Shown here one piece after another: positions 538 through 19,493 of a DNA stretch of 64,000 nucleotides. The notes below the pieces were generated by a model, which saw only the letters and a list, made by a program, of their open reading frames with translations, did no database searches and was not told where the DNA came from. Position 1 is the stretch's first letter; every line of letters starts with the position of its first letter. The position numbers and the translations under genes were made by a program. The stretch is from an uncultured Bacilli bacterium (lineage in GTDB: Bacteria > Bacillota_I > Bacilli_A > RF39 > UBA660): the NCBI GenBank assembly GCA_934097105.1, contig CAKONI010000002.1, forward strand, positions 12,006 to 76,005, in the 5' to 3' direction.

Positions 538-1615
538 TTATGAATACTTTTTTTATCTCTTTTGAATTTGTTAAGTATATCATTGGTATATAACGAATAT
601 TTAATTCTATGATGTCTCCTAGTTTTATTTTCTTTTTATAGTCTTCGACGTCTAAGATTGTATGATCGCTTGATGCTCCGATTAGTTCTATTCCTTCATC
701 TTTTGATATTAATCCTTCAAGATAACCATAGTCTGCTTTTCCTATTGCTAGGATGGCTCTTTTTCTTATTCCTTTATCTATATATTTTGGCTTATGTCTA
801 AACGCATCGCATAGAATTTCTCCATCTGGGTAACTTGGTTTATCTTTTATTTCTATTACTTCTGCTTTTAATGTGAATATGTCTTTATTAAGTTCTGTTT
901 TACATCCGTATAGTTCTTCTAATTCTTTTCCTGTTAGGATGGCCTCGCCTATTCTTAAGAGGTTTATTTCTTTTGGAATTGTTTTATCTATTACTCTTGT
1001 TAGGGATGAAGTTGAGCCTCCGGATAGATATTTTAGTTTTCTTCCTAGTGCTTTTTCTACTTTTTTTGCGGTGTCTACTAGTTTTTGTAATGTTTTTTTG
1101 GATGGCGTTACAGAGCCGTAGCATCCTATATTTATTCCAAGGCCTGCTAGAGAAATGTTGTCTAAATTATTTTCAATAAATAGTGCATCATTTATTAGTT
1201 CTTCATCGCTATAATAGCCTTCTCTTAGGTCGCCAACTTCTTTCATTAATATTACTTCGTGTATTTTATTTTGTTTTTTGGCTTCTTTATTTAATTTTTT
1301 TATTACTTCTATTTCACTGTTTAGGCTAATGTTTGAATATTTTATAACATCTTTTACTTCACTTAGCATTGGTAGTCTTGTAAGTAGAAGTGGTGTGTTT
1401 ATCTTATCTTTTATTTTTTTTAATTGTTCTATTCTAGAGGATGCTATAAATGATACGTTTTCTTCATCATACACTTTGGCTATTTCTAAAAGAGAATTTG
1501 CTCCTTTTATTACTCCTGCTACTTGTATATTGCTTGCTTTACATAGCTTTTTTATTTTTCTTATGTTATCTCTTAATTTATCTAGATTTATTTCTAATTG
1601 TGGATATTTACTCAT
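518..1615 (-). CDS. alanine/ornithine racemase family PLP-dependent enzyme (Orr-like)
   Basis: 365 aa. The N-terminal 'LDKLRDNI...VAGVIKG' block carries a candidate PLP-lysine. Blocks 'GDLREGY', 'KGIRKRAILAIG' and 'GASSDH' are colinear with what I recall of the clostridial ornithine racemase family. The start lies 2 nt after the ligase stop. Confidence 0.75.
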   Translation of the reverse strand: MSKYPQLEINLDKLRDNIRKIKKLCKASNIQVAGVIKGANSLLEIAKVYDEENVSFIASSRIEQLKKIKDKINTPLLLTRLPMLSEVKDVIKYSNISLNSEIEVIKKLNKEAKKQNKIHEVILMKEVGDLREGYYSDEELINDALFIENNLDNISLAGLGINIGCYGSVTPSKKTLQKLVDTAKKVEKALGRKLKYLSGGSTSSLTRVIDKTIPKEINLLRIGEAILTGKELEELYGCKTELNKDIFTLKAEVIEIKDKPSYPDGEILCDAFRHKPKYIDKGIRKRAILAIGKADYGYLEGLISKDEGIELIGASSDHTILDVEDYKKKIKLGDIIELNIRYIPMIYLTNSKEIKKVFISEEKNG

Positions 1616-1617
1616 TT

Positions 1618-3441
1618 TTATCTTCCTTTTTTGTTTTTATTTGATTTGGGGTGTTTACTTTTCTTTTCTTTTTTTGGTTTTTCTTTTAATTCTTCTTCTA
1701 TGGTTACTTTTGATTCATCTTCTAGTATTGTGTATGCTATTTTACCTACGAGTGTTTTAGGAAGTTCTTTTCTGAATTCGAATATTTTTGGCATTGCGTA
1801 TTTTGCTATATATTTTTGGCAATATTTTTTTATTTCTTCTTCTACTTCTTCGTTTATTTTTACTTCTTTTTTTAATACTATGTAGGCTTTTACTACTTCT
1901 CCGCGGTATTTATGGGGAATGGGTACTACTGTGCATGATGATACGTATTCGTGCTTATTTATTATTTCTTCTATATATGATGGATAGATGTTGTAACCTG
2001 ATGAGATTATTAATCTTTTTAATCTTGATTTAAAGTAGATGAATCCATCTTTGTCCATTGTTCCGATGTCTCCGGTGTGAAGCCATAGTTTTCCGTCTTT
2101 ATGTATTTTTAAGGTGTTATTTGTTTCTGATTCTTCATCTAGGTAGCATTTCATTACGGTTGGTCCGCTTATACATATTTCTCCGTCTTCTAAGTAGTCT
2201 ACTTCTTTTGTGGTTCCTATTTTTACTATTTTGTAGATTGTATCTGGAAATGGTATTCCTATTGAGTTTTCTTTGTAGTTACTGTTTGGAACGAGACATG
2301 TTGCAGCGGTTGCTTCGGTTAGGCCGTAGCCTACTCTTATTTTGGCATTTGATCCATATTTTTTAAAGAAGTCGTTGTATTTTTTTATTTTTTCTTCTGA
2401 CATGACGTCTCCGCCTGATACTAGTACGTTTATTGATTCGAAGTCGTTTTCTTTTATGTTTTTTGACATGTATAGGGCTTCGAATAAGGTTGGTACTCCG
2501 ACGAAGAAGTTTGGTTTTGTTTTTCTTATTAAATTTAGTAATTTCTTTGCTTTGAATGTTGGTACTAGGATGCATTTCATTCCTATGTAAAGTGGCGTAT
2601 GGATGCATACTCCGAGTCCAAATCCATGGAATATTGGCATGATTGATAGAATTGAGTCTTTGGCTTTGGCTGGATCGCACATTAGGTGAGCGCCTTGAGC
2701 AAGGGCGTTGAAGTTTTTATTTGTTAGGACGATTCCTTTTGGGGTTCCGCTTGTTCCGCCACTGTAAAGGATTACTGCGGGATCGTCTCCGGTTTTATCT
2801 ACGTAGTGCTCTTCGTAGTAGTTTTCGCCTCTTTGAAGGAATTTTTTATATGATAGTACTTCTCTGTTGCGGAATGCTTTTAAGAAGACTTCTCCAATTT
2901 TTTTTACTCCTTTTGTTACGTCTGTATTTCTTCCTAGGTAAAAGAATTTTTTTAGTCCTTTTAGATCATATCCTGCGGATGAGACAATTACTTTTGAGAC
3001 TTTAGTGTTATTTATTATATTTAGTACTTTTTTATAGTTAAAGTCTATTGTAAGTATTACGCTTGAACTACTTTTATTTAGGTAAAGTTCTATTTCTTTT
3101 TCACTTGATAAGGGATGGATCATATTTGATATGGCTCCGATCATGTTTATTGCATAGAACATAACTAGGGCGGTTGGTGTGTTTGGCATGCAGATACTTA
3201 CTACATCGCCTTCTTCTACTCCGATGGCCTTTAAGGATTTTGCACAACTGTCTATTTTTTTCATGAATTCTTTATATGTTATTTTATTGTTATAGTATTC
3301 TAGTGCGTAAGAGTTTGGATATTTTATGGCGGTTTCTCCAAGTAAGGATACCATTGAGCCTTCGAAGTAATCTAGGTTTGCTGGTACATCTTTGTACTGG
3401 TTAAGCCAGGGATATTTTTTATTTAATTTCAAGTTTTTCAC
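1618..3441 (-). CDS. AMP-dependent acyl-CoA synthetase/ligase (long-chain fatty-acid-CoA ligase-like) with Lys/Glu-rich C-terminal tail
   Basis: Adenylate-forming motifs 'YSGGTSGTPKG', 'GYGLTE' and 'TGDIGTMDKDGF'. It also has an extra ~35-aa tail, 'EEELKEKPKKEKKSKHPKSNKNKKGR'. Confidence 0.85.
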   Translation of the reverse strand: MKNLKLNKKYPWLNQYKDVPANLDYFEGSMVSLLGETAIKYPNSYALEYYNNKITYKEFMKKIDSCAKSLKAIGVEEGDVVSICMPNTPTALVMFYAINMIGAISNMIHPLSSEKEIELYLNKSSSSVILTIDFNYKKVLNIINNTKVSKVIVSSAGYDLKGLKKFFYLGRNTDVTKGVKKIGEVFLKAFRNREVLSYKKFLQRGENYYEEHYVDKTGDDPAVILYSGGTSGTPKGIVLTNKNFNALAQGAHLMCDPAKAKDSILSIMPIFHGFGLGVCIHTPLYIGMKCILVPTFKAKKLLNLIRKTKPNFFVGVPTLFEALYMSKNIKENDFESINVLVSGGDVMSEEKIKKYNDFFKKYGSNAKIRVGYGLTEATAATCLVPNSNYKENSIGIPFPDTIYKIVKIGTTKEVDYLEDGEICISGPTVMKCYLDEESETNNTLKIHKDGKLWLHTGDIGTMDKDGFIYFKSRLKRLIISSGYNIYPSYIEEIINKHEYVSSCTVVPIPHKYRGEVVKAYIVLKKEVKINEEVEEEIKKYCQKYIAKYAMPKIFEFRKELPKTLVGKIAYTILEDESKVTIEEELKEKPKKEKKSKHPKSNKNKKGR

Positions 3442-4393: not shown

Positions 4394-5377
4394 ATGAAAA
4401 AAATAATTATCTTTAGTACTTGTCTAGTAATAATTTTGTGTTTAACATTCTTATTTTTATGGGCAAATAATGATGATAATAGCAATCTTGAGAAAGTTAA
4501 GGTTGCAGAAGTTACGCATAGTGTGTTTTATGCACCACAATATGTAGCACTTGAAAAAGGCTATTTTGAGGAAGAAGGACTTGATGTTGAACTTACTTTA
4601 ACTGCTGGTGCTGATAATGTTATGGCTGCAGTTTTATCTGGAGATGCCGATATTGGTCTTTCTGGTAGTGAGGCTACTATATACGTTTATAATAAGGGTG
4701 AAAAGGATTATATTAAGACTTTTGCTCAACTTACTCAAAAAGATGGTTCATTTTTAATTTCGAGAGAAAAGGTTAAAGATTTTAAAATCGATGATTTAAA
4801 AGGTAAATATGTTATTGGAGGAAGACAAGGTGGTATGCCGGAAATGACTCTTGAGTATGTTCTTAAGAGTAATGGAATTGATCCTAAAAAAGATCTTACT
4901 ATTGATACTAGTATTGAATTTGCTTCAATGGCTGGGGCTTTTATTGGAGGTACTGGTGATTATGTTGCGCTATTTGAACCTTTGGCTACAAAATTAGTTA
5001 ATGAAGGATATGGTTATAAAGCAAGTTTACTTGGTACTCTTACTGATAATGTGCCATATACTGCTTATAATGCTAGAATTAGTTATTTAGAAGGAAATTC
5101 TGATACTATTACTAAATTTGATAGAGCTATTCAAAGGGGCCTTGATTTTGTACATGAAAATAGTAGTGATGATATTACTAAGGCTATTATGAATCAATTT
5201 CCAGATACTTCTTATAATGATATTAAAAATGCTGTAGAAAGTTATCTTGAAAATGATACTTGGCCTGTTAATACGACTTTTTCTAAAAAATCTTTTGATC
5301 ATTTACAAGATATTGTAATTGAAGCGGGATTTTTAGATAAAAAAGTAAATTATAGTGATTTAATTTATGAAAGATAA
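4394..5377 (+). CDS. ABC transporter substrate-binding protein (NMT1/THI5-like, NitT/TauT family)
   Basis: N-terminal signal anchor 'MKKIIIFSTCLVIILCL' followed by 'VTHSVFYAPQYVALEKGYFEEEGLDVEL', which is typical of NMT1-type binding proteins. The RBS AGGGAGG precedes ATG 4394. ATPase and permease genes follow. Confidence 0.8.
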   Translation: MKKIIIFSTCLVIILCLTFLFLWANNDDNSNLEKVKVAEVTHSVFYAPQYVALEKGYFEEEGLDVELTLTAGADNVMAAVLSGDADIGLSGSEATIYVYNKGEKDYIKTFAQLTQKDGSFLISREKVKDFKIDDLKGKYVIGGRQGGMPEMTLEYVLKSNGIDPKKDLTIDTSIEFASMAGAFIGGTGDYVALFEPLATKLVNEGYGYKASLLGTLTDNVPYTAYNARISYLEGNSDTITKFDRAIQRGLDFVHENSSDDITKAIMNQFPDTSYNDIKNAVESYLENDTWPVNTTFSKKSFDHLQDIVIEAGFLDKKVNYSDLIYER

Positions 5378-5792
5378 TTTGCTTGAGATAGAGAATTTAA
5401 AGAAAATATATCATACTCCAAAGGGGGAAATACTTGCTCTTGATGATATTTCTTTTACAGTTAAGAATAAGGAGTTTATTTCTTTAGTTGGTCCTTCTGG
5501 ATGTGGAAAGAGTACAATTCTTACTATTTTAGCAGGTATTCTTAGTAAAACCGAAGGTAATATTAATTTTACTATTGAAAATCCTAAGATTGGATATATG
5601 CTTCAGGAAGATTCGCTTTTTCCTTGGAGGACTGTTTTAGATAATGCATGTTTGGGACTTGAGGTTAGAAAAGAACTTAATGATGAATCTTTAGGAAATG
5701 TTGTAAGGCTTTTGAATAAGTATGGACTTGGAGATTTTATAAATAATTATCCTGATAGTTTAAGTGGTGGCTTAAAGCAAAGGGTTGCTTGA
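5367..5792 (+). pseudogene. ABC transporter ATP-binding protein, 5' fragment (interrupted by mobile element)
   Basis: Walker A 'GPSGCGKST' and a Q-loop are present. The ORF ends at 'LSGGLKQRVA' plus TGA, inside the ABC signature motif, with no Walker B. Confidence 0.85.
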
Positions 5793-5840: not shown

Positions 5841-6575
5841 CTATCCTATTTTTATTAAGGTAAGTACTGCGGTTGTGTAGTCATTAAATGTAAGGGTTGT
5901 TTCTGCGTCTGCTCTTACGTTTAGGTTTATGACGTCGTCTTTTGATAGTTCTGCAATTACTGTGTTGCTTACACTATTTAAAGTATTTGGTTCCCATTTT
6001 GCTCTTAGGTTGGTTCCTCCGATTAAAATATCGTTATTTCTTGCAGTTATGGTTAAAGATGCGCTTACGTTTGGAGTTCCACTTAGGTAATATGATATTT
6101 GATAGAACCCCTCTTCTTTTATTTTTACGGAGTTTTCGGTTGTGTAGTCTGTATTATAGTATTTTCCATCTTCATTTAAGGGAACAATTGTATCAGCCAT
6201 TCTTGATAGTTGTAAAGGTACATTTTGATTTGAGTATCGCATGGCGTAGGCGATTGTTTGGGCTGGTTCTCCTTTATCTCCTTTTGGACCTGGTTCTCCT
6301 TTGTCTCCTTTTTCACCTTTGGGTATTTTAAAGTCTAGTACTGCGTCTATATTAGTTCCAGAGTTTAGAACTTCGGCGTTTTGATCTGGTGCTACTGTTT
6401 CTATTTTCCCTATATTAATAGTTGCTGGGCCTTGCTCTCCTCTTTCTCCTTGGTCACCTTTTTCGCCTTTTGGACCTGGTACATAACGATATTTTATATT
6501 TCTATTTGCTTCTTCTATTCTTCTTATGACATCTTTACGATTTCCATTACAAGAGCAATCTTTTTTATTATTCAT
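5841..6575 (-). CDS. collagen-like triple-helix repeat protein with BclA/C1q-like or tail-fibre-like C-terminal domain
   Basis: There are two Gly-X-Y runs, 'GPKGEKGDQGERGEQGP' and 'GEKGDKGEPGPKGDKGEP', split by the linker 'ATINIGKIETVAPDQNAEVLNSGTNIDAVLDFKIPK'. A ~135-aa beta-rich C-terminal domain follows. The hairpin AGGATA-N6-TATCCT plus a T-run overlaps the stop codon. Confidence 0.75.
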   Translation of the reverse strand: MNNKKDCSCNGNRKDVIRRIEEANRNIKYRYVPGPKGEKGDQGERGEQGPATINIGKIETVAPDQNAEVLNSGTNIDAVLDFKIPKGEKGDKGEPGPKGDKGEPAQTIAYAMRYSNQNVPLQLSRMADTIVPLNEDGKYYNTDYTTENSVKIKEEGFYQISYYLSGTPNVSASLTITARNNDILIGGTNLRAKWEPNTLNSVSNTVIAELSKDDVINLNVRADAETTLTFNDYTTAVLTLIKIG

Positions 6576-6797: not shown

Positions 6798-8390
6798 ATG
6801 GAAAGTGAAAAGTATTTGCGTGTTGGTATTTATTTGAGGCTTTCTAATGAGGATAAAGATAAGGATAAGTGTAATAAGGATATTAGTGAGTCTATTAAAA
6901 ACCAAAGGAATCTTTTACTTGATTATATTGATAAAAACCCTTCTTTTGTTTTGTTTGATGAGTATTGTGATGAGGATTTATCTGGTGCGGGGAGTTTTAG
7001 ACCGGAGTTTGAGAGGTTAATTAGGGACTGTGAGCATGGAATGATTGATGTTGTTCTTTGTAAGAGTCAGTCTAGGTTTTCTAGGGATATGGAAGTTGTT
7101 GAAAGATATATTAATAATAAGTTTAAGGAGTGGAATATAAGGTTTATTGGGGTTAGTGATTCTGCTGATACGGATAATTTTGGTAATAAGAAGTCTAGAC
7201 AAATTAATGGTCTTGTTAATGAGTGGTATTTGGAGGATGTTTCTTTAAATATAAGGAGTGCTTTTAATTCTAAGATGAGACAAGGTGAATTTATCTCGCC
7301 TTTCGCACCTTTTGGATATGAGATTTGTAGTTATGATAATAATAGACTTGTTGTTGATAAGGATGCTAGTTTAGTGGTTAAGGAAATATATAATTTATAT
7401 TTATCTGGGTTTGGATTTTCTGCGATTGCTAGGCATTTGAATGAAAAAGGTACTCCCTCCCCTTCTTTTCATAAATATAAACGCGGGATTAAGCTAAATG
7501 TTGTTAGCAATAGATCTAGGGAGGATATTAAGTGGAATGGTGCTTTTATTAAAGGGATTTTAACTAATGAGGTTTATATTGGAAATTTAGTTCAGGGTAA
7601 AAGGACTACGGTTAGTTATAAGAATCATAAGATTATAAATAAGTCTCGTGATAAATGGATTAGATATGATAATACTCATGAGGCTATTATTGATAAGGAT
7701 GTGTTTTTTAAAGTTCAAGATCTTATAAAAAAAAGAACTAGAGTTTATAAGAAAAGTAATGTTTGTCATGTTTTTTCTGGAAGGGTTTATTGCAAAGTTT
7801 GTAGGGGTAAGATGAGAAAAAAAAATTCTTCTAGGCATGAGTATTTGGTTTGTGTGAATAGTCAGAAAGGGCTTTGTGAAAATAAGCAGTCTATTAGATA
7901 TGATGATCTTAAAGGATTGATTTTGAATGAGATTAATAAAAGAATTGATATAAGTTTTGATAAGGATTTTTTAAAGGATGAGATTTGTAAAATGGTGAGT
8001 AAAAGTAATAAGATTAGTGTTTTGGAAAAGGAAAAAGATGATATTTTAAAAAAGATTAGTACTTTTAAGAATCGTTTTAGATCTCTTTATGATGATAAAG
8101 TAAGTGGTATTATTGATGATGAGTATTTTAAGGAACTTTTTAAATTTTATAAAGATGAGGAGACAGGCTTTTTTCGTAGGTGCTTATCTATTGATGAGGA
8201 AATTAGTTTACTTAAAAATATTTCTTATGATGATATTATTTTTAAGTATAGGAAGTTTAATGCTTTAAATATTACTATAGTAGATGAATTTATTGATAAA
8301 ATTTTTATTGGTTTTTTTGATAGGAAAAATAATACTAGAGATGTTGTTATTAAATGGAATTTTGGAAATTATAAAAAGAAAAGAAGTTAG
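6798..8390 (+). CDS. large serine recombinase (resolvase/invertase catalytic domain + recombinase domain + zinc ribbon + coiled coil)
   Basis: 'VGIYLRLSNEDKD' carries the catalytic Ser and 'KSQSRFSRD' is present. The recombinase-domain block 'FGYE...IARHLNEKG' is followed by a Cys cluster, 'CKVCRGKM...CVNSQKGLC'. At 530 aa the length fits serine integrases. Confidence 0.9.
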   Translation: MESEKYLRVGIYLRLSNEDKDKDKCNKDISESIKNQRNLLLDYIDKNPSFVLFDEYCDEDLSGAGSFRPEFERLIRDCEHGMIDVVLCKSQSRFSRDMEVVERYINNKFKEWNIRFIGVSDSADTDNFGNKKSRQINGLVNEWYLEDVSLNIRSAFNSKMRQGEFISPFAPFGYEICSYDNNRLVVDKDASLVVKEIYNLYLSGFGFSAIARHLNEKGTPSPSFHKYKRGIKLNVVSNRSREDIKWNGAFIKGILTNEVYIGNLVQGKRTTVSYKNHKIINKSRDKWIRYDNTHEAIIDKDVFFKVQDLIKKRTRVYKKSNVCHVFSGRVYCKVCRGKMRKKNSSRHEYLVCVNSQKGLCENKQSIRYDDLKGLILNEINKRIDISFDKDFLKDEICKMVSKSNKISVLEKEKDDILKKISTFKNRFRSLYDDKVSGIIDDEYFKELFKFYKDEETGFFRRCLSIDEEISLLKNISYDDIIFKYRKFNALNITIVDEFIDKIFIGFFDRKNNTRDVVIKWNFGNYKKKRS

Positions 8391-9583
8391 TTTTGTTTGG
8401 CTAATTTCTTTTCTTTCTTTTGTTTTTGTTTTTCATATTGTTTGGCGTCGTCTACTTGTTTTAGTCCTAAATTTATGAAATATATTATTACTAACCATGC
8501 TAGGATTGTCATAGCGATTTGTGTCATGTTATATGGTAAGTTTATTGGCATATCCCATATTCCGTGGAGTACTACTGGTATTAGACATATAAGTATAAAT
8601 CTTTTGTCGTTTAGATGCTTTTTATCTAATTTTTCGAATCCTTTTACATACATAAGGGCAGCGCCTTCGATGGCAGCCCATGCGACGTGGCCACCGGGTG
8701 CTAGGAAGCCTCTTAGTTTTATAACGCTAAGCATTGTTTCTAGACCACCACTTAATCCATATTTTAGGATGTATCCTGCTGTTTCAAAGGCTGCGAAGCC
8801 TGCTCCTACGGCCGCTCCTATTAAGAGTCCATCTAAGATATAATCACTTTTTTTGCTTTTAAATAGAAAGACTGCTACGATGGTTGTTTTGGCTGCTTCT
8901 TCGATTAGTCCTACCATCATTGCGCCGAAATATGTTGTTATGTCTGTGTTAAAGTTTAATGAGAAGAATAGTATTGCGACGATTAATGATAAGGCTCCTC
9001 CTAGGATAAAGTATTTCATTACTTTATAAAATGGTATGTTTCTAAAAAGATTTATTTCGAAGAAGAATATTAAAACTGTTACAGGAATAGCGAAGGCTGC
9101 TAACATTATCATGGCTGGTAAGAAGTTTTCGTTTCCGTAGTTTATGAATCCTATTCTTGTTGGAATATATGCTATTAGGAAAAATATTAGTATTTTAAAG
9201 TAGACCCATGCACTGGCATTTTTTGGATCTATTTCACTTACTTTTGGAGTTGTTTTTTCTCCTCCGCAGATGAATATTTCGTCTAGTTCTTCGTCTGTGT
9301 GTTTTTTGAATGTGTTTTTAAATAGGCTTTTAAATGTTACATAATTTTCTGATTTTGCGCCGGTTATTTTATCTAGGTTTTCTGTAATTATGTTTTTTGA
9401 TTTAACTTCTTTAGTCTCTTTTTCAAGAGGAAATCCGCATTCTGGGCAGTATGTTTCTCCTCCTTTTAAAGTTTTTCCGCATTCTGGACAGGTGTTTTTT
9501 TGAAGGCTTATTCCGCAGTGGGGACATACTTTTGCGCTTGATGATACTTCTTTTTTACATTCTTTACATTTTACGAGTGCCAT
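8387..9583 (-). CDS. double zinc-ribbon / PrsW-family intramembrane protease fusion protein
   Basis: The N-terminus has 'CKECKK..CPHCG' and 'CPECGK..CPECG'. A multi-TM core follows with PrsW-type blocks 'GLIEEAAKT' (EExxK), 'FAAFETAGY' and 'GGHVAWAAIEG'. Confidence 0.7.
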   Translation of the reverse strand: MALVKCKECKKEVSSSAKVCPHCGISLQKNTCPECGKTLKGGETYCPECGFPLEKETKEVKSKNIITENLDKITGAKSENYVTFKSLFKNTFKKHTDEELDEIFICGGEKTTPKVSEIDPKNASAWVYFKILIFFLIAYIPTRIGFINYGNENFLPAMIMLAAFAIPVTVLIFFFEINLFRNIPFYKVMKYFILGGALSLIVAILFFSLNFNTDITTYFGAMMVGLIEEAAKTTIVAVFLFKSKKSDYILDGLLIGAAVGAGFAAFETAGYILKYGLSGGLETMLSVIKLRGFLAPGGHVAWAAIEGAALMYVKGFEKLDKKHLNDKRFILICLIPVVLHGIWDMPINLPYNMTQIAMTILAWLVIIYFINLGLKQVDDAKQYEKQKQKKEKKLAKQN

Positions 9584-9584
9584 A

Positions 9585-10331
9585 TTAATTTCCTCCTGCT
9601 GATAGGGTTTTTATTACTGTTTCTGCTAAAGTATTTACTACTTCACTATTTGTATTTTCTTCTTTGGTTCCTATCATATATACTACATTATTTATAACAA
9701 CTGCATATCTATTGTCTACGATTAGGTGTCCGTTTGATGTGTAATTGTATGCAAGGCCATATACGTATTTATCTCCGATATTTCCGCCTACTAAGTCGAT
9801 TGTTATTTTAAGATCGGGATATTCTTTTCTCATGTAGTCAGTGAAACTGTTTAAAAATTGTACTCCGTTGTTGAATTTTTCATATTTTCCTACGATTACG
9901 TATGGTATTGTGGCATTGTTTTCTTTTAAATTTTGAGTTACATAAATAAATCCATCTTTGTCGGTTGCTACTTGGTAACCACTTGGGTATTCAAATGATA
10001 ATCCTAGATTGCTATCTTTATAAGTTGTGTAGCCATTATTTTGTGATGGTTCGGTTGTTCCTGGGTTTGACGTAGGATTATCTTGATTGTTGTTGTTATT
10101 GTTACTAGTTCTATTTTGAGTAAATAGCAAAAATAATATGAATAGTACTGCAAATATGAATAGATATCTATACATATCGTTTTTATCTTTCTTTTTTGTT
10201 TTTGGTTTAGTTTCTACCCTTTTTGTTTCTTTTTTGCTTTCATTATTGTTTAGTTCATATCCACATTTTGGACAGGTTTCTGCTTTATCGCTTATTTTAT
10301 TATTACATTCTGGACATTTTATAAGTGCCAT
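9585..10331 (-). CDS. zinc-ribbon, single-pass membrane protein with extracytoplasmic domain
   Basis: The N-terminus 'MALIKCPECNNKISDKAETCPKCG' is paralogous to that of the next gene ('MALVKCKECKK...CPHCG'). It has one TM helix, a poly-Asn linker and a ~150-aa C-terminal domain. Its stop is 1 nt from the PrsW-fusion start. Confidence 0.6.
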   Translation of the reverse strand: MALIKCPECNNKISDKAETCPKCGYELNNNESKKETKRVETKPKTKKKDKNDMYRYLFIFAVLFILFLLFTQNRTSNNNNNNQDNPTSNPGTTEPSQNNGYTTYKDSNLGLSFEYPSGYQVATDKDGFIYVTQNLKENNATIPYVIVGKYEKFNNGVQFLNSFTDYMRKEYPDLKITIDLVGGNIGDKYVYGLAYNYTSNGHLIVDNRYAVVINNVVYMIGTKEENTNSEVVNTLAETVIKTLSAGGN

Positions 10332-10705: not shown

Positions 10706-11656
10706 ATGAAAAATGAAATTGTATTATTTGAAAATCAAGATGTAAAACTTGAGGTTAATATGAAAGATGAGACTGTATGGTTATCATTAGAGCAAATGGC
10801 TAGATTATTTGGTAGAGATAATTCTGTTATTTCTAGACATATTAAAAATGCATTAAGAGAATAGTTATATGATTCAACTGTTGCAAATTTTGCAAAAGTT
10901 CAAAATGAGGGCAACAGAAATGTAACACGTAATATTGATTATTATAACTTAGATATGATTATTAGTGTTGGTTATCGTGTTAAAAGTCAAAATGGTGTTA
11001 TTTTTAGAAAATGGGCAAATAAAATATTAAAAGACTTTTTGCTAAAAGGATATACTGTTAATCAAAAGAGATTAGAATATCTTGAAAAAACTATAAAATT
11101 AATTGATATTGCTGGAAGAATAGATACTGAGTTAAAGGGTGATGAAGCAAAAGAAATAATTAAAGTAATAAATACTTATTCAAATGCTTTAAATTTGCTT
11201 GATGATTATGATCATAAAAGAATTGTTAAACCGAATGGAACTAAAAATAATAAACAAGTTACTTATGAGGATTGTATGAATGTTGTTAATAAACTTAAAT
11301 TTAATAGTGATAGTGATTTATTTGCACTTGAGCGAAATAAAGGTTTAGAAGCAATAATAGGTACAATATATTAATCTTTTGATGGTAGTGATTTATACCC
11401 TACTGTGCAAGAAAAAGATCCTAATTTTCTTTATTTAATTGCTAAAAATCATACTTTTATTGATGGTAATAAAAGAATCGCTGCTACGCTATTTATTTAC
11501 TTTTTGGAATTTTATAATATTTTATATAATGAAAATGGACAAGTTATTGATAATAATACTCTTGTTGCGATTACGCTTCTTATTGCACAATCTAATCCTA
11601 AAGAAAAGGAAATACTAATTGATTTAGTAATGAACTTTTTAAAAAATGATGATTGA
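10706..11656 (+). pseudogene. RhuM-family / Fic-DOC domain protein gene with two in-frame stop codons
   Basis: All of 10706-11656 stays in one reading frame. The RhuM-like N-terminus has 'YYNLDMIISVGYRVKS' and the Fic-type motif is 'HTFIDGNKRIAA'. The frame is broken only by TAG (10862-10864) and TAA (11372-11374). Confidence 0.75.
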
Positions 11657-11676: not shown

Positions 11677-11708
11677 AAAGTGTCTTTATTATGCTCAAAG
11701 AGTTGCTT
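11677..11708. other. attR-like junction of the inserted element
   Basis: AAAGTGTCT (11677-11685) is followed 10 nt later by the core CAAAGAGTTGCTT (11696-11708). The host ATPase frame resumes here. Confidence 0.65.
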
Positions 11709-12040
11709 TAATTAGGACACTTGCTCTTAATCCTGATATACTTTTGTTGGATGAACCTTTTTCTGCTCTTGATTATCAAACTAGACTTTCTTTGTCTGAT
11801 GATTTGAAGAAGATAATTAATGATGAGGGGAAAACTGCTATTATGGTTACTCATGATATTGCGGAGGCTATTAGTATGTCTGATAAAGTTATTGTTATTA
11901 CGAATAGACCTGGTAAAATTAAAGAAATTATTGATATAAATTTAGAGAGTGTTAAGACTCCTACTGAGAATAGAAAAGATAAATATTTTACTAAATATTA
12001 TGAAAAGATATGGAAAGAGTTAGATAATCATGTACAGTGA
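11696..12040 (+). pseudogene. ABC transporter ATP-binding protein, 3' fragment
   Basis: From 11696 the frame reads 'QRVALIRTLALNPDILLLDEPFSALD...MVTHD' (end of signature, Walker B, H-loop). It overlaps the permease start as in an intact operon. Confidence 0.85.
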
Positions 12041-12919: not shown

Positions 12920-13612
12920 TTATTGTATATTAAAGAAATTATCTATACCTACTGCTCCGTCATAGTAATAGTTTATAATTTCAGCACATAGTTTTAGATT
13001 TTCTTTATTTATTTTATTATTTTGTTTGTATTCTGTTAGTATTCGATTGAATAAAATATCATAATAGAATATTATTGAACCATATTTTGAATTTATTAGT
13101 ACATTTACTAGTGAATCTATTTTTGCTTTTATATCATCTTCTAAATTTGATAGTAAGTAATCATTGATATTTACTGTTTCTCCACTTATTTTAGCGGTAT
13201 CTCCTAGTATTTCTGATAGTTTTTTTTGTAGTGGTAGTTTTTCATTTTTTATATCGTCCATTAGGTAGTTTTTATATTGTAATGTTTTTTCTACAGTATA
13301 TTGGGAAATTTCTTTTTCTTTGTTTTCAATATTTTTTGGAATTGTGTCTCCCACTACGAAGTCTTTGTCTTCTGTTTTGTTAAATTCTAATATTTCTTCA
13401 TTTTTAATATCAATTAGAGCCCAATATTCAGGTTTTATGCTTTCTTCTTTGCTCCATATATTATCTGTGTCTTTTGTTAGTGCTACTCCAATATATAATT
13501 TTTCTTGTTCTACTCTTAACATTGGATATAATGGAATGTAGTTTTCCAATCCTTTTTTTTCTTTTTCTTTGTTTACAATGCTTAAATATTTGTCTAAGTT
13601 TAAATCATTCAT
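12920..13612 (-). CDS. hypothetical cytoplasmic protein translationally coupled to the sigma factor gene
   Basis: 230 aa with no TM segment. Its start overlaps the sigma gene stop by 8 nt. Confidence 0.55.
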   Translation of the reverse strand: MNDLNLDKYLSIVNKEKEKKGLENYIPLYPMLRVEQEKLYIGVALTKDTDNIWSKEESIKPEYWALIDIKNEEILEFNKTEDKDFVVGDTIPKNIENKEKEISQYTVEKTLQYKNYLMDDIKNEKLPLQKKLSEILGDTAKISGETVNINDYLLSNLEDDIKAKIDSLVNVLINSKYGSIIFYYDILFNRILTEYKQNNKINKENLKLCAEIINYYYDGAVGIDNFFNIQ

Positions 13613-14078
13613 AATATCTCTCCTTTATTTTTTTTCTTGCATTATATAAATAATATTTTATATTTGCTTCTTTAGTATTTAGTTTTATACTAATTTCTTT
13701 TATTGAAAGGTCGTTTATGTAATATAATTTAAATGATTCTTGTTCTTTGGATGTTAAGCCAATGTCATTTAGATTGTTTATAATTTCTTTATATATAATT
13801 TTATCGATCATTTCTACTTCATAACTTGATTGAAATTGCTCTTCAAATCTTATATTATTTTTTTCTTTAATATAGTTTTTTGCTTTGGTGCACCATAAAT
13901 TATAAGCAATTTTCCATATTAAATTTTCTAATTTTTCTACTTTTATATCTTTGTTTAAATATTCAAATATTGATAAAAATACATTATTAGTTAGATCTTC
14001 AGCATCTTCTTTATTGTTTGTTTTTTTTAATGACCAATTATATATTTTGTAATAATATTCATCATAAATTTTATCCAT
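13605..14078 (-). CDS. RNA polymerase sigma-70 family factor (ECF-like, regions 2 and 4 only)
   Basis: Region-2-like 'EDAEDLTNNVFLSIFEY' and region-4 HTH 'LSIKEISIKLNTKEANIKYYLYNARKKIKE'. 157 aa. Confidence 0.8.
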   Translation of the reverse strand: MDKIYDEYYYKIYNWSLKKTNNKEDAEDLTNNVFLSIFEYLNKDIKVEKLENLIWKIAYNLWCTKAKNYIKEKNNIRFEEQFQSSYEVEMIDKIIYKEIINNLNDIGLTSKEQESFKLYYINDLSIKEISIKLNTKEANIKYYLYNARKKIKERYYE

Positions 14079-14187: not shown

Positions 14188-16791
14188 TTATGAAAGGGTA
14201 AATTTCTTGGCGAAAGAAGGGTTGGATTCATAAATGGTTTCTGAGGCTCCGTAAAGTCTTTCACCCGTATTAGAAAGTGTGCCTGTTTTTTTAGGTATGC
14301 TTATAGTCCATGATAATGCTTCTGTATTTTCTCCGGCACCTTTGAACATATTATACATATTTGTTACACTTGAAGTATCCCAGCGTGATAAATCTAAATT
14401 AAATGTTTCGGCTTCATAGGAACCTGCATAGGCAAACATTTGAACCATACTTGTTACTTTTGAGGTGTCCCAACCATCTAAAATTAAGTTAAAGTCGGTG
14501 GAGTAAGCACCAGCAAAAGCGAACATACCACCCATGTTTGTTACATTTGATGTATCCCAGCGTGACAAATCTAAGTTAAAAGTTGTTATATTTTTACCCA
14601 CGTAACTAAACATTCCAGACATATCTGTTACCTTTGATGTATTCCAGTTTGATATATTTCCTAAAGTCCAAGTTTTGGAATTTTGTCCTATGCTATCAAA
14701 CATATGCATCATATTTGTTACATTTGAGGTATCCCATGAAGATAAATCACCAACATTCCAAGTGCTTGCATTTGCTCCTGCATTGTAGAACATATTACTT
14801 ATGTCTGTTACTTTTGATGTATTTAAATTAGACAAGTTTAATTTAAATGATAAAACATTTTTTCCTGCATTGTAGAACATGTAACTCATGTCTGTTACAT
14901 TTGATGTATCTAAGTTAGTGAAATCACCTTTTTCCATATTAGTGAAGCCATCGAACCAATATGCTGTAGAAGTAGGTTTTATTGTTCTTCCTATTTCTAC
15001 GCTTTTTACATTTATGCGTTCATTTTTCCATATTACTGGACTACTATTAAATGTATATGGATTATCATTATCCATTGCAACATATTTATTAGTGACTGCT
15101 CCGTGTTTTGATATGTTGGCACTTCTATCTTTTAGTTGTTCATTTATTATTAATGTTCCATCATTATATAGTGTTGTCATTTCATTTACTAATTTTACTG
15201 TACATGTTGTATTACTTGTTACATTGTTTAATGTTAAAATTTTGTTATTATAAGTTCCTGTTTGATTGTTTGTACAATTAACATAAGCACTTGTGTAGTC
15301 TTCTCCGATTGGTGTTATATTGAAAGCTGTGTTTGTATTATAATCAATTGTCTTAGAAGCAGTTTCAACTGTACCATTTTGTACTACTACACTTACTGTA
15401 ACTGTTTCTTTTACAGTTATTTGTTGTGTTATTTCTATATTGCCTGTACATGTTATTTTTACACTTGTTACATCTTTTGTTAGTGGTGTATTTGGTGAGA
15501 ATGTACATGTACCATTTTCTATTTCTTCTTTTATATTTAATGTATTTTTACTGTTATCATTATATGTTGCTTCTACTTCCATACCAGTTGGATCAAATGT
15601 TTCTCCTTCTTGGTATATTGTTTTTGTCGCTGGTGTTTTTGCTGTTATTCCTGTTATGTATTTATTTACTACAGTTATGTTTTGATCTACACTTTTTCCG
15701 CTACAAGTAATTGTTACTTTTGTATCATTCTTTGAAAGTTCTCCATTTGGATTAATTGTACATTTATTATTACTTACTTCTTCACTTACGTTTTTATCTA
15801 CTGTAGTTCCATCACTATATTTATAAGTGATAACCATTCCATCACTATTAAACCTTTCTCCTTCGATGTATTCTTTCTTTGTTGCCTCAGTTTTTATACT
15901 TATATTTTCTAGCGTTACTTCTTTTGCATTTACTGTAACACTAACACTAGTTTGATCATTTCCACATTTAACTATTACTTTATCAGTTCCTACTGTTAAT
16001 TGATCTGGAACAAATTTACAAATATCTTTAGTGACGTCTAATTCTTCTGTTAGTTCATTATTGTATTTTACTTTTATCTTCATTCCTGTTGGATCGAAGT
16101 ATTCTCCGTCTTCATATATACCTTTATTAGGTTTGCTTGTTATTTCTGTTATTTCTTCGATTGTTTTTTCGCTTACTTTAATAGATTGGGTAGCAAATAC
16201 ACCTTCACAGGTAATTCTTATTTGTGTTGTATCTTTTTCTATTTTGCTTGGTGAGAATGTACAACCTTTTCCATCTTGGATTTCTGCTGAATCTCCTGTA
16301 TTATATGTTACTTTTAACTTCATTCCTGTTGGGTCAAAAGTTTCTCCTTCGATGTATTCTGTTTTTGTTGGCATTGTGGTTATATCTAGATTTGTTGGTA
16401 TTTTGTTTGTTGGTGCTTCTGCTTTGATAGGAGCAGCCCATGACCATGAACTGTTATGGTAACCACCATTTTCATCGAACCAATAAAGTGCTACGGCAAA
16501 CTTGTATGTTTCTCCTCTATTTAAGCCGTCATAAACTTTATATCCTGCTCCTCCTTTAGGTCTTAGAATCATTGCTTGGTTGTCTTTATAAGCCCAATTT
16601 GCATTTAAGACTATAATACCACATTTTTCGTATTTACAACTGGCTAAATCATATTCTACTTTTATTTGTGTACTTAGCATGTTTGTTGCTTTTGTTATTT
16701 TTGGTAATTCATCTTCTGCATGGACATTTAGCATGAAACCAAATCCTAAAAACATTATAAATAATGCTAAAATCAAATTTTTCTTTTTCAT
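14188..16791 (-). CDS. secreted modular surface protein: N-terminal beta domain, 4 bacterial Ig-like (Big_3-type) repeats, conserved connector, 7 DUF285/BspA-type repeats
   Basis: Signal peptide 'MKKKNLILALFIMFLGFGFMLNVHA'. Four repeats of the type 'TKTEYIEGETFDPTGMKLKVTY'. The C-terminal units carry 'WDTSNVTNM..MF'. Confidence 0.8.
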   Translation of the reverse strand: MKKKNLILALFIMFLGFGFMLNVHAEDELPKITKATNMLSTQIKVEYDLASCKYEKCGIIVLNANWAYKDNQAMILRPKGGAGYKVYDGLNRGETYKFAVALYWFDENGGYHNSSWSWAAPIKAEAPTNKIPTNLDITTMPTKTEYIEGETFDPTGMKLKVTYNTGDSAEIQDGKGCTFSPSKIEKDTTQIRITCEGVFATQSIKVSEKTIEEITEITSKPNKGIYEDGEYFDPTGMKIKVKYNNELTEELDVTKDICKFVPDQLTVGTDKVIVKCGNDQTSVSVTVNAKEVTLENISIKTEATKKEYIEGERFNSDGMVITYKYSDGTTVDKNVSEEVSNNKCTINPNGELSKNDTKVTITCSGKSVDQNITVVNKYITGITAKTPATKTIYQEGETFDPTGMEVEATYNDNSKNTLNIKEEIENGTCTFSPNTPLTKDVTSVKITCTGNIEITQQITVKETVTVSVVVQNGTVETASKTIDYNTNTAFNITPIGEDYTSAYVNCTNNQTGTYNNKILTLNNVTSNTTCTVKLVNEMTTLYNDGTLIINEQLKDRSANISKHGAVTNKYVAMDNDNPYTFNSSPVIWKNERINVKSVEIGRTIKPTSTAYWFDGFTNMEKGDFTNLDTSNVTDMSYMFYNAGKNVLSFKLNLSNLNTSKVTDISNMFYNAGANASTWNVGDLSSWDTSNVTNMMHMFDSIGQNSKTWTLGNISNWNTSKVTDMSGMFSYVGKNITTFNLDLSRWDTSNVTNMGGMFAFAGAYSTDFNLILDGWDTSKVTSMVQMFAYAGSYEAETFNLDLSRWDTSSVTNMYNMFKGAGENTEALSWTISIPKKTGTLSNTGERLYGASETIYESNPSFAKKFTLS

Positions 16792-16944: not shown

Positions 16945-18375
16945 ATGCTAGATAAACAAATTAAAATGATTAAGGATCATTATAAAAATTCTCCGGATAT
17001 TGTTTTTAGAAAAATTGATATTAAAAGTAAGAAAATTGTATTTGTTTTTAATGATACTTTATGTAAAGGTGATAATATAAATGATTTTATTCTTAAGCCT
17101 CTTACTAATTTTGATAAGAAAATTACTAGAGACAATATTTTGAATCATTTGGAAAGTCAAATACCTGAGAGTAATATTGTTAGTATAAAAGATAAAGATG
17201 ATCTTTTAATAAAAATTGGTTCTGGATTTACTGTTATTTTGTTTGAAAAGGAAAAGCCTTTTGCTGTTGAGACTAGAGATGTTTTGTCTAGAAATATTTC
17301 TGAGCCTTTGACTGAGCAGACTATAAGTGGTCCAAAAGATGCTTTTACTGAGAATTATAAAACTAATATTGGACTTATTAGGAAAAGAATTAAAACTAGT
17401 AATTTGGTTTTAGAAGAGTTTGATGTTGGTAAGGAGACTGTTACTAAAGTTGGGATTTTCTACATGGATAATATTATTGAAAAGGATCTTTTGGAGGAAA
17501 TTAAAAGCAGAATTAAGAGTATTAATATTGATGGTATTTTTGATAGTACTTATATTAGAGAAATTATTGAGGATAATCATAGTGTTTTTCCGACTATTGA
17601 AACTAGTGAGAGGCCTGATACTACGGCGATGGCTCTTCTTGATGGAAAGGTTTGTATTTCTGTAGATGGTTCGCCTTATTTTCTTATTATTCCTACTTTT
17701 TTTACTGATTTGTTTCATGCTAGTGAGGATAATTATCAGAATTATAAGAATGTTACTTTTACTAGATGTATTAGATTTCTTGCTTTTTTAATTGCGATTG
17801 TTCTTCCGGCTTTTTACATTGCTATTATTACATATAATCATGAAACTATTCCTGCTACTTTGCTTATTAATTTTGCTGCTCAGCGGGAGGGAGTTCCTTT
17901 TCCACCTATTATTGAGGCTCTTGGTCTTACTTTAGTTTTTGAAATTCTTCGTGAAAGTGATATTAGGATGCCTCATCTATCGGGTACTGCTATTTCTATA
18001 CTTGGTGCAATTGTTCTTGGTGATGCAGCGGTTTCAGCGGGTATTGCTTCTCCGATTATGGTTATTGTTATTGCTCTTTCTGCTATTTCTTCTCTTATGT
18101 TTTCTCATATTGGGATGGTAAATGCGATAAGAGTTTGGAGAATTATATTTATGCTTTTTGCCACTTTAGCGGGCATTATTGGTGTTTTTTTAGCAGGATT
18201 TCTTCTTACTATTAATTTATCTTCTTTAAGTTCTATTAAAAAGCCTTATTTGTACCCTCTTATACCGCTTAATAAGAAGTTTTTGTTTAGTAGTTTAGGA
18301 AAGGATTCAATAAAAAAAGATAATAAGCGTATGCCTATTCTTACTGATAAAAATTATACAAGGAGCAAATTATGA
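16945..18375 (+). CDS. spore germination protein, GerA/GerKA (A subunit) family
   Basis: 476 aa. The soluble N-terminal domain has 'ISGPKDAFTENYKTNIGLIRKRI'. The C-terminal TM bundle has 'REGVPFPPIIEAL' and 'RESDIRMP'. Confidence 0.9.
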   Translation: MLDKQIKMIKDHYKNSPDIVFRKIDIKSKKIVFVFNDTLCKGDNINDFILKPLTNFDKKITRDNILNHLESQIPESNIVSIKDKDDLLIKIGSGFTVILFEKEKPFAVETRDVLSRNISEPLTEQTISGPKDAFTENYKTNIGLIRKRIKTSNLVLEEFDVGKETVTKVGIFYMDNIIEKDLLEEIKSRIKSINIDGIFDSTYIREIIEDNHSVFPTIETSERPDTTAMALLDGKVCISVDGSPYFLIIPTFFTDLFHASEDNYQNYKNVTFTRCIRFLAFLIAIVLPAFYIAIITYNHETIPATLLINFAAQREGVPFPPIIEALGLTLVFEILRESDIRMPHLSGTAISILGAIVLGDAAVSAGIASPIMVIVIALSAISSLMFSHIGMVNAIRVWRIIFMLFATLAGIIGVFLAGFLLTINLSSLSSIKKPYLYPLIPLNKKFLFSSLGKDSIKKDNKRMPILTDKNYTRSKL

Positions 18376-19493
18376 AAAAATTATTTTTATTTATTTTGTT
18401 AATACCTTTTATGACTGGATGTAGTTATATGGAACTTGAGGATCTTGCTATTGCTTCGGCGATTGGAATTGATTATGAGGATAATAGTTTTGTTCTTACT
18501 GCGCAAATTATGAATGTTACGACTGGTGAAACGGGCACGATGGAAGAAAATGCTCTTATTTATGAGGGAAGTGGTAAGACAGTTTCTGAGGCTGTTAGGG
18601 ATTTTTCTGTTAAGTATCCTAAGAATATTTATTTTGGGCATTTGGAAGTTCTTGTTCTTAGTAAGGATATTATGGAAAATCATTTGGATGAAATTCTTGA
18701 TTACTTTTTTAAGTCTCCGGAAACTAGGACTTCTGGATATATTTTAGTAAATGATAAGGATTCTGCTAGAAATACTTTAAATCCTAAGAATGAAAAAAAG
18801 GATTCTTTTCCGGCAGAAGATATTAAAAGTATTTTGATGGATTCTACTAAGAGGACTGGTACTGTTAAGGATATTACTTTGGAGGAGTTTGCTGTTGATT
18901 ATTTGAAGAAAGGTTACTCCCCTATTTTTCCTATTATAAATATTAGAGATAAAAAAGGTATGACTACTAGCAAGATTGAACTTTATAATATGGCTGTTTT
19001 AAATGATGATAGAAAACTTGTAAGTCTTGATAAGAAAAGTTCTATTGCTTATAATACTTTGAAAGAAAATTATACTGATATATCTATAATATCTACATAT
19101 AAAGGGCATTCTTTGGGTCCTATTATTTATCATCCTAAGTCTAAAGTGAAACTTAAACTTTCTAATAACGAAATTAATGTTAATATTAAAATAAGGGCTG
19201 AGTCTATTATTTCTAATGCTAATGGTATTGATCAAACTAAGGATAAGATGCATAGGATTCTTGAGGAAAATATTGAGAAATCTCTTGGTTCTTACGTGGA
19301 TTCTTTAATTAATTTTTGTAAGGAAAATAATGCTGATGTTTTGGGGCTTAGGAATATGATTTATAAAAATTATAATAGTGATTATAAGAATTATAAAGAT
19401 AAGAATATATATGAAATGGCTAATTTTAAGAAGGATATTAAGATAAGAATATATAGGTATGGAAATACTAATCAAGGAGGTAAAAGTAAATGA
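18372..19493 (+). CDS. Ger(x)C family spore germination lipoprotein
   Basis: Lipobox 'FMTGC' followed by 'LEDLAIASAIGIDYE'. ATGA overlap with the A-subunit stop. Confidence 0.85.
   Translation: MKKLFLFILLIPFMTGCSYMELEDLAIASAIGIDYEDNSFVLTAQIMNVTTGETGTMEENALIYEGSGKTVSEAVRDFSVKYPKNIYFGHLEVLVLSKDIMENHLDEILDYFFKSPETRTSGYILVNDKDSARNTLNPKNEKKDSFPAEDIKSILMDSTKRTGTVKDITLEEFAVDYLKKGYSPIFPIINIRDKKGMTTSKIELYNMAVLNDDRKLVSLDKKSSIAYNTLKENYTDISIISTYKGHSLGPIIYHPKSKVKLKLSNNEINVNIKIRAESIISNANGIDQTKDKMHRILEENIEKSLGSYVDSLINFCKENNADVLGLRNMIYKNYNSDYKNYKDKNIYEMANFKKDIKIRIYRYGNTNQGGKSK

Follow-up and report, generated by a model that had tools for sequence, protein, structure and literature searches.

A predicted zinc-ribbon PrsW-family intramembrane protease paired with a zinc-ribbon single-pass membrane protein in gut Bacillota

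The gene pair and its products

The window analysed here is a 64,000-nt stretch of DNA from an uncultured Bacilli bacterium (GenBank assembly GCA_934097105.1, contig CAKONI010000002.1, positions 12,006 to 76,005). It contains two adjacent genes on the reverse strand, the first encoding a zinc-ribbon protein with a single transmembrane helix (hereafter the partner) and the second encoding a double zinc ribbon fused to a PrsW-type core (hereafter the protease). The pair lies within a small element that carries a large serine recombinase gene and splits the ATPase gene of an ATP-binding cassette (ABC) transporter (Table 1). A first-pass annotation, made from the sequence alone, had taken the two genes for cargo of the element and for a possible signalling, exclusion or defence module linked to what is known of PrsW.

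We found that the stop codon of the partner gene and the ATG of the protease gene are separated by exactly 1 nt (position 9584), as had been stated. With this gap and a Shine-Dalgarno sequence embedded in the terminal codons of the partner gene, the two genes form a translationally coupled operon. Both N-terminal ribbon sequences quoted in the first-pass annotation are present, but they had been attributed to the wrong genes, since MALIKCPECNN...CPKCG begins the single-pass partner and MALVKCKECKK...CPHCG begins the PrsW fusion. Of 28 residues, 14 are common to the two ribbons, which both start with MAL(I/V)KC. Homologues number more than 1,500 for the protease and 242 for the partner, and the two are therefore real genes rather than chance open reading frames (ORFs).

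The partner is predicted to be a type-II single-pass membrane protein with a binding-type outer domain, falling outside any characterised family. Hydropathy and an AlphaFold2 model agreed with the earlier description of one transmembrane helix, a poly-Asn linker and an external domain: a run of Asn residues (NNNNNN) forms a low-complexity tether between the helix and the ectodomain, and the ectodomain (~155 aa) folded confidently, with a predicted local distance difference test score (pLDDT) of >90 over residues ~90-248. A Foldseek search of the PDB with this domain gave 33 matches at E <=1e-3, the top match being the cyanobacterial PsbP protein CyanoP (2xb3; E 1.6e-6, target-normalised TM-score 0.64); further matches included plant PsbP, DcrB (6e8a), LpqN (6e5d), Tsi3 and the Eag/SciW chaperones. 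This placement in the PsbP/Mog1 fold agrees with a match to PF18933 (PsbP_2) over residues 63-230, which at 25.6 bits falls just below the cut-off of 27, and one partner homologue (P0134) has a precomputed match to the same family. In an alignment of 41 partner homologues, the ribbon was nearly invariant (MALIKCPEC.N.ISD.A..CPKCGYE) and the ectodomain was conserved, with invariant DNRYA and EEN.N motifs; the linkers were variable on both sides of the membrane, the outer one ranging from ~10 to ~60 low-complexity residues. No Pfam match to the anti-sigma domain zf-HC2 was found in the partner.

The protease begins with its ribbons, followed by a juxtamembrane segment that precedes the first transmembrane helix and is kept in relatives of 35-41% identity. 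Its multi-pass core scored 100.3 bits against PF13367 (PrsW-protease; cut-off 23.5, E 1.3e-28) and covered profile positions 5-192 of 196; together with the PF12773 match of the N-terminus, this bears out the first reading of the product as a double zinc ribbon followed by a PrsW core. The catalytic motifs are all present, namely E228-E229-x-x-K232, F263xxxE267 (within FETAGY), H299 (within HVAWAAIEG) and H340xxxD344, and they are invariant or almost so even at 35-43% identity. The residues were all invariant in 34 close homologues, and in an alignment of 42 sequences that added relatives of 33-39% identity, E228, E229, K232, F263, E267, H299 and H340 were invariant and D344 nearly so. Given this conservation of the motifs, the protein, an intramembrane protease of the PrsW family (glutamic-type, CPBP-related), is very probably active. 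The active-site signature of PrsW consists of EExxK, a His in the preceding helix and HxxxD (Ovchinnikov et al. 2015, PMC4602095), and the family has been described as having four conserved motifs on about eight transmembrane helices (Zhang et al. 2012, PMC3482391). Hydropathy gave at least seven hydrophobic segments in residues 122-377 of the window protein, and an AlphaFold2 model built with the 34 close homologues contained 7-8 long helices at low confidence (pLDDT 59), for which reason it was left out of the fold searches. As judged by these profiles, the protein belongs to the PrsW family and is not an orthologue of Bacillus subtilis PrsW, because its score against the NCBIfam PrsW equivalog NF033739 (58.2 bits) was far under the cut-off of 225. 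Scans of the pair against NCBIfam, PHROG and PADLOC gave nothing functional beyond the ribbons and this sub-threshold equivalog match, and a sequence-profile search of the PDB with both proteins returned only zinc-ribbon noise (ribosomal L32/L37, ArnA).

Fusions of a zinc ribbon to PrsW constitute a large family that is already annotated, one source naming a member "PrsW family glutamic-type intramembrane protease", and uncharacterised. In an exhaustive search of 1.84 billion cluster representatives, the close homologues of the protease all fell in a single 50% cluster, and beyond it 451 more clusters were found at E <=1e-30, many of which align from query residues 6-32 onward and thus have the N-terminal ribbon too. 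The ribbon was likewise present in 20 of the 20 distant genomic relatives with a readable start; locus L080 had no readable ORF (related loci are numbered with the letter L). A literature search on PrsW returned work on RsiW, PrsW-toxin fusions and myxosortases, and neither the zinc-ribbon PrsW architecture nor its pairing with a zinc-ribbon single-pass protein was found described.

Table 1. Features of the window and of related loci. Positions are in nucleotides of the window unless a locus (L) is named.
Feature	Position	Strand	Residues or length	Remarks
ABC ATPase, N-terminal half	5367-5792	+		Cut after ...LSGGLKQRVA; follows NMT1-type binding-protein gene
attL core CAAAGGGTTGCTT	5778-5790	+		End of truncated N-terminal ATPase half; element-side arm ...GTAGACACTTTAAAAA
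BclA-like collagen-repeat gene	5841-6575	-		BclA_C (exosporium-type) 40.7 bits, and Collagen; attL end of element
Large serine recombinase gene	6798-8390	+	530 aa	
Zinc-ribbon/PrsW fusion gene (protease)	8387-9583	-	398 aa	From ORF list
Protease, multi-pass PrsW core	8486-9025	-	aa 187-366	Carries EExxK, FxxxE, H299, HxxxD
Protease, conserved juxtamembrane segment	9209-9391	-	aa ~65-125	NLDKITG...FKDLFKNTF.KHT.EELDE.F.CG...TTP
Protease, double zinc ribbon	9425-9583	-	aa 1-53	PF12773, residues 6-50, E 1.2e-9
Partner gene	9585-10331	-	248 aa	From ORF list; first of two same-strand genes
Partner ectodomain, PsbP/DcrB-like, predicted extracytoplasmic	9588-10064	-	aa ~90-248	AlphaFold2 model and Foldseek
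Shine-Dalgarno AGGAGGA of protease gene	9591-9597	-		Inside last codons of partner gene (A-G-G-N), 7 nt before ATG
Partner transmembrane helix	10104-10181	-	aa 51-76	Sole hydrophobic segment by hydropathy; Lys-rich linker N-terminal to it
Partner zinc ribbon, predicted cytoplasmic	10251-10331	-	aa 1-27	PF13240 (Zn_Ribbon_1), residues 5-27, 31 bits
RhuM/Fic-type gene	10706-11656	+		Two in-frame stops, TAG 10862-10864 and TAA 11372-11374; no frameshift
attR core CAAAGAGTTGCTT	11696-11708	+		Preceded by element-side arm AAAAAGTGTCTTTATTATGCT, inverted repeat of attL arm
ABC ATPase, C-terminal half	11690-12040	+		Back in frame at ~11709 with LIRTLALNPDILLLDEPF
Extracytoplasmic function (ECF)-type sigma factor gene	13605-14078	-	157 aa	Within block 12920-14078, just outside element
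DUF285/Big_3 surface protein gene	14188-16791	-	867 aa	
Germinant-receptor operon	16945-20581	+		GerA, GerAC, spore permease; adjoins DUF285/Big_3 gene
Very long ORF	25270-30480	-	1,736 aa	
576-aa helix-turn-helix-like genes, examples	L003 5375-7105; L009 6248-7987	-		
Bacteroidales BACON-domain partner genes	L070 11116-12021; L071 11118-12038; L073 10957-11898; L084 11158-12135; L069 1858-2787			
Triple in uncultured Clostridia genome	L086 7641-11335		345, 420 and 453 aa	Zinc-ribbon protein with one transmembrane helix, then two zinc-ribbon PrsW paralogues

Conservation of the pair and its relation to the element

Close homologues of the protease (64-81% identity) were present in 59 species-representative genomes. 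All were assembled from human-gut metagenomes and are assigned to Bacilli, Clostridia or Tenericutes; Clostridium sp. CAG:508 and CAG:762 are among them. We found that the two genes co-occur in these genomes, the partner gene lying directly upstream of the protease gene in 55 of the 57 species loci with upstream DNA, mostly at the 1-nt gap, which recurs in most of 62 related loci. In the two exceptions, the partner gene was truncated (L024) or absent (L034). The partner is less conserved than the protease, with identities of 29-67% as against 64-81%. Because of this near-invariable co-occurrence, partner and protease look like one functional module. The operon is a conserved chromosomal feature of a low-GC, spore-forming lineage of human-gut Bacillota.

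In the window, the pair does lie on a mobile element, as the first-pass annotation had proposed, and this element is bounded by att sites. The two junctions share a 13-bp core, CAAAGrGTTGCTT, with a single-base difference (G/A), and the element-side arms, AGACACTTT and AAAGTGTCT, are inverted repeats, which fits the expectation for the attP arms of a serine integrase. Joining the cores in silico removed 5,918 bp and restored a 251-aa ATPase with 63% identity, over its whole length, to its uninterrupted counterpart in L056. The 5.9-kb serine-recombinase element is thus real, and its genes are arranged in the order BclA-like, recombinase, protease, partner and RhuM/Fic; the recombinase gene is convergent with the protease gene and overlaps its 3' end by 4 nt, exactly as first described.

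The comparative context did not support the view that the pair is characteristic cargo of such elements, since most relatives carry it in ordinary chromosomal neighbourhoods without a recombinase. Where neighbours had precomputed Pfam assignments, these were ordinary (tRNA synthetases including ArgS, rimM/trmD, uvrC, ftsK), and homologues of the window recombinase lay within 10 kb of the pair in only 5 of the 59 species loci, only three of which had the same element; the enrichment of homologous pairs near phage or integrase genes that might have been expected of cargo was therefore not seen. In five species (L033, L042, L047, L056 and L066), the pair is immediately downstream of, and convergent with, an intact ABC operon encoding a substrate-binding protein, an ATPase and a permease, and the ATPase gene contains an uninterrupted attB site, GGTATGAGACAAAGAGTTGCTTTAATTAGAACACTTGC. 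The same att sites are occupied in L009, L049 and L052. Specifically, the site in L052 holds a ~3-kb element with only a BclA-like gene and the recombinase gene, and the pair is located past the permease gene, not within the element. The att-bounded segment of L009 and L049 does include the pair, which there adjoins attL and has different companion genes. For example, the order in L009 (protease, partner, two genes of neighbour clusters c4 and c0, recombinase and RhuM/Fic) differs from that of the window. The path by which the pair passed from outside to inside the att-bounded segment was not reducible to one excision and reintegration or to a circular permutation.

Among the loci that share the ABC operon, the protease was 69-79% identical, and the corresponding values were 46-73% for the ATPase halves, 49-57% for the permease, 46-66% for the binding protein and 58% for the recombinase. 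Because the protease is more conserved than the adjoining ABC proteins, the pair would be a lineage-core rather than an accessory feature, and because relatives carry it without the element or, in L052, outside the element, we do not regard it as element cargo. The pair appears to be an old neighbour of the ABC operon that, in some species, ended up inside the att-bounded segment, and its place there appears to be a positional accident, with no evidence for an element-related or defence function. The observation that speaks the other way is that the pair is truly inside the att-bounded segment in the window, L009 and L049, which formally leaves room for an element-linked role in these three loci. 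This case suggests a caution, namely that a gene pair inside an att-bounded element need not be functional cargo and that comparative context has to decide.

Possible function of the pair

B. subtilis PrsW (YpdC) acts as site-1 protease on the anti-sigma-W factor RsiW, and, to our knowledge, PrsW is understood in essentially this one context, that is, site-1 cleavage of RsiW in Bacillus and in related ECF pathways. The window protease resembles B. subtilis PrsW in its PF13367 domain, catalytic motifs and predicted multi-pass membrane core, but adds a cytoplasmic N-terminus of ~125 aa made up of the double zinc ribbon and the juxtamembrane segment. Its partner, the presumed substrate, resembles RsiW in topology, having a cytoplasmic N-terminal zinc module, one transmembrane helix and a C-terminal ectodomain, but it carries a CxxC...CxxC ribbon and a PsbP-like ectodomain rather than the anti-sigma domain ZAS (zf-HC2). 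The connection with RsiW and sigma factors raised in the first-pass annotation found no support, as no conserved sigma or anti-sigma gene adjoins the pair and the partner lacks an anti-sigma domain: the precomputed Pfam assignments displayed for neighbouring genes in related loci included no sigma gene, and there was none among the recurrent neighbour clusters c0-c15 that were looked at, most clusters being unannotated. The ECF-like sigma factor encoded in the window was considered as a pathway output and rejected, as its gene is outside the element, no sigma gene is found beside the pair in annotated related loci, and the 230-aa product of the gene downstream of it matched no anti-sigma family.

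Other known systems share single features with the pair. The CPBP/type II CAAX prenyl protease (Rce1)/Abi superfamily has a four-helix catalytic core and related EExxxR and HxxxN/D motifs (PMC4602095, PMC3482391), but the window protein matches PrsW and not CPBP/Abi profiles, and no connection of the known CPBP roles (prenyl-protein processing, bacteriocin immunity and kinase scaffolding) with a zinc-ribbon partner has been demonstrated. The PrsW-toxin fusions of polymorphic toxin systems are single polypeptides in which the PrsW domain precedes a C-terminal toxin (Zhang et al. 2012, PMC3482391). Such fusions are similar to the window protein in combining a PrsW domain with an extra module and in being proposed to process a linked protein; in the window, however, the module added to PrsW is a zinc ribbon at the N-terminus, the linked protein is separately encoded, and there is no toxin or immunity gene. 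The ectodomain of the partner shares the PsbP/Mog1/DcrB/LpqN/DUF1795 fold (Foldseek probability 1.0, target-normalised TM-scores up to 0.64-0.67), and bacterial members of the PsbP/Mog1/DcrB fold are envelope-located binding modules, but none of the solved PsbP/DcrB-fold members, to which identity is 9-17%, is tethered by a zinc ribbon and a transmembrane helix or paired with a protease. Similarly, Staphylococcus TcaA-type proteins consist of a zinc ribbon, a transmembrane helix and an extracellular domain, and the N-terminal 70 residues of the partner match them weakly (E 6.6e-8); this match, however, scored 32 bits, far under the 550-bit cut-off. TcaA has an unrelated ectodomain and does not form a pair with a PrsW protein.

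A similar theme was observed in other lineages. In Bacteroidales (Muribaculaceae, Prevotellaceae and others), the gene directly downstream of a zinc-ribbon PrsW gene encodes a protein of ~300 aa with a zinc ribbon, one transmembrane helix and a BACON domain, so that, compared with the window, the gene order is reversed and the ectodomain is different. A BACON-type neighbour was present in all 10 loci at least 57% identical to the Muribaculaceae query L070 and in 25 of the 71 metagenome loci with enough downstream DNA (among L095-L174, contigs that were not dereplicated). The ribbon type of the partner matches that of the protease in each lineage, being MALIKCPEC...CPxCG in Bacillota and CxNCG...FCxxCG in Bacteroidales. 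In addition, the three products of the Clostridia locus L086, one of the single-pass type and two PrsW paralogues, all begin with MALI(N/Q)(C/Y)PEC. The combination of a constant protease, a matching type of cytoplasmic ribbon and an exchangeable ectodomain suggests a receptor-plus-processing-enzyme module that recurs across lineages.

The data may be best explained by regulated membrane proteolysis, independent of a sigma factor, that either acts on the partner or is gated by it, and we hold this explanation with roughly even confidence. The matched ribbons, and perhaps the juxtamembrane segment, would hold the receptor-like partner on the protease at the cytoplasmic face of the membrane, and the state of the ectodomain, with a ligand bound or the envelope perturbed, would decide whether the protease cuts the partner. 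Alternatively, the state of the partner could control the action of the protease on other substrates, or its access to them. Such proteolysis would be analogous to that of RsiW by PrsW, with an output other than an ECF sigma factor. Gene structure, family membership, conserved catalytic residues, coupling, co-occurrence, element boundaries and comparative contexts were observed; that the two products interact physically, that the partner is cleaved, and what signal and output are involved, we infer.

Several observations weigh against this explanation. The close relative L034 keeps the protease without an adjoining partner; the pairing is missing in 14 of the 21 distant relatives sampled; and a group of Bacteroidales at 48% identity has no BACON-type neighbour. 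Among the conserved neighbours, no output component of the pair was identified, and the 64-kb window contains no homologue of a neighbour that recurs elsewhere, a protein of ~576 aa with a weak N-terminal helix-turn-helix match of the Cro/C1 type.

The gene for this ~576-aa protein, which has no other Pfam match, is located directly upstream of the partner gene and divergent from it in 28 of ~57 species, and a gene for a 367-aa protein with an N-terminal transmembrane helix is sometimes found between the two. The ~576-aa protein may be a regulator, a target or a downstream component of the pair.

A wider possibility, which we regard as tentative and less likely than not, is that the pair belongs to an undescribed, cross-phylum class of two-protein transmembrane signalling modules whose output would bypass ECF sigma factors. 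A single-pass receptor would dock on the protease through matched cytoplasmic ribbons, its ectodomain being interchangeable between the PsbP-like type of gut Bacillota and the BACON type of Bacteroidales, and the output might be a released ribbon peptide or might act on the divergent helix-turn-helix-like 576-aa protein. Across the Bacillota and Bacteroidota of the gut, zinc-ribbon PrsW fusions fall into hundreds of clusters at 50% identity, with function and substrate undescribed, and a coupled partner with substrate-like topology, found in ~55 species and mirrored in Bacteroidales, offers a concrete candidate substrate or regulator; with such a candidate at hand, the family becomes experimentally tractable.

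It is unlikely, though deserving of serious consideration, that the partner is instead an accessory subunit of the protease, such as a sensor, inhibitor or adaptor, and that the true targets of the protease are different membrane proteins whose genes lie elsewhere, such as an anti-sigma factor or an envelope protein. Tight coupling and co-occurrence would fit a stoichiometric complex equally well, proteins of the PsbP/DUF1795 fold are often binding or chaperone modules (the Eag/SciW chaperones and the immunity protein Tsi3 being among the Foldseek matches), conservation is far higher in the protease than in the partner, and L034 has no partner gene beside its protease gene. However, the surroundings of the pair contain no conserved candidate for an external substrate, and the flexible, length-variable tether between the transmembrane helix and the ectodomain of the partner is what would be expected of a protease-accessible substrate.

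We consider it improbable that the two proteins are independent, sharing only an operon and a common type of N-terminal zinc ribbon that is found in many membrane proteins of gut Bacillota and Bacteroidota, with their adjacency reflecting co-regulation of envelope proteins. Ribbons of PF13240/PF13248 are very common N-terminal modules, as illustrated by the weak matches of the pair to TcaA and to several PHROGs of unknown function, and many distant zinc-ribbon PrsW genes are without such a neighbour. Nevertheless, the 1-nt spacing and the embedded Shine-Dalgarno sequence have been kept in ~55 species despite reshuffled flanking genes, the pairing appears to have arisen independently in Bacteroidales with another ectodomain and another gene order, and the ribbon type co-varies between partner and protease, all of which speak against independence.

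Finally, it is very improbable that the pair is element cargo acting in phage defence, superinfection exclusion or abortive infection, the role first suggested for it: although the pair is within the att-bounded element in three loci, fragments of the RhuM/Fic gene of the element match the PADLOC candidate families PDC-S23 and PDC-S05, and membrane proteases of the CPBP/Abi type are part of some immunity and abortive-infection systems, that RhuM/Fic gene is a pseudogene in the window, most species carry the pair without the element, the pair is near-universal in its lineage, highly conserved and surrounded by housekeeping genes, neither protein matched any PADLOC-DB 2.0 family at E <=0.01, the 2.9 million viral contigs of IMG/VR contained a single relative (34% identity), and the matches in phage databases were only six unannotated Listeria/Staphylococcus records (35-41% identity), which are probably host DNA.

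The element and the surroundings of the pair

The recombinase encoded by the element has the Pfam domains Resolvase (PF00239), Recombinase (PF07508) and Zn_ribbon_recom (PF13408), with a weak match to DUF4368; it also matched the integrase family PHROG 95 (E 1e-92) and, weakly, XisF and CcrB of NCBIfam. The BclA-like gene accompanies the recombinase gene in L052 as well, and the RhuM/Fic gene, interrupted in the window, is intact in L009 (294-aa ORF). An arrangement identical to that of the window was present in three other metagenome contigs (L088-L090), which encode an identical protease and all have the element in the integrated form. In L089, the gene caller gave a Fic-matching product of 214 aa (1572-2216, reverse strand), longer than the 83-aa Fic fragment of the window; this product may continue towards, or even into, the sequence of the C-terminal ATPase half.

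In the related species with an occupied att site, at least three in number (L009, L049 and L052), the recombinases were only 58% identical and the cargo was different, and the site was empty in five species. Instead of having moved recently, the element could have been inherited vertically as an intervening element of the skin type. It shares with skin/SpoIVCA, fdxN/XisF, SCCmec Ccr and Tn5397-type elements a large serine recombinase, short att cores and inverted-repeat arms and, with gene-interrupting recombinase elements, insertion into a coding sequence that is restored by precise excision, here in silico. In contrast to the skin and fdxN types, its target is the ATPase gene of an ABC transporter and not a sporulation or nitrogen-fixation gene, and it differs from gene-interrupting recombinase elements in being very small and in having a content that varies strongly between species. 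Conserved in several spore formers, where it interrupts an ABC ATPase gene, the element may be worth examining as a possible case of this kind.

Beyond the element, the ECF-type sigma factor gene overlaps by 8 nt the downstream gene for a 230-aa protein, which had no match in Pfam or NCBIfam, including their anti-sigma families, and which might be a soluble anti-sigma factor. Based on the presence of germination genes of the GerA type and of SpoIID, we identify the host as a spore-forming member of the Bacillota.

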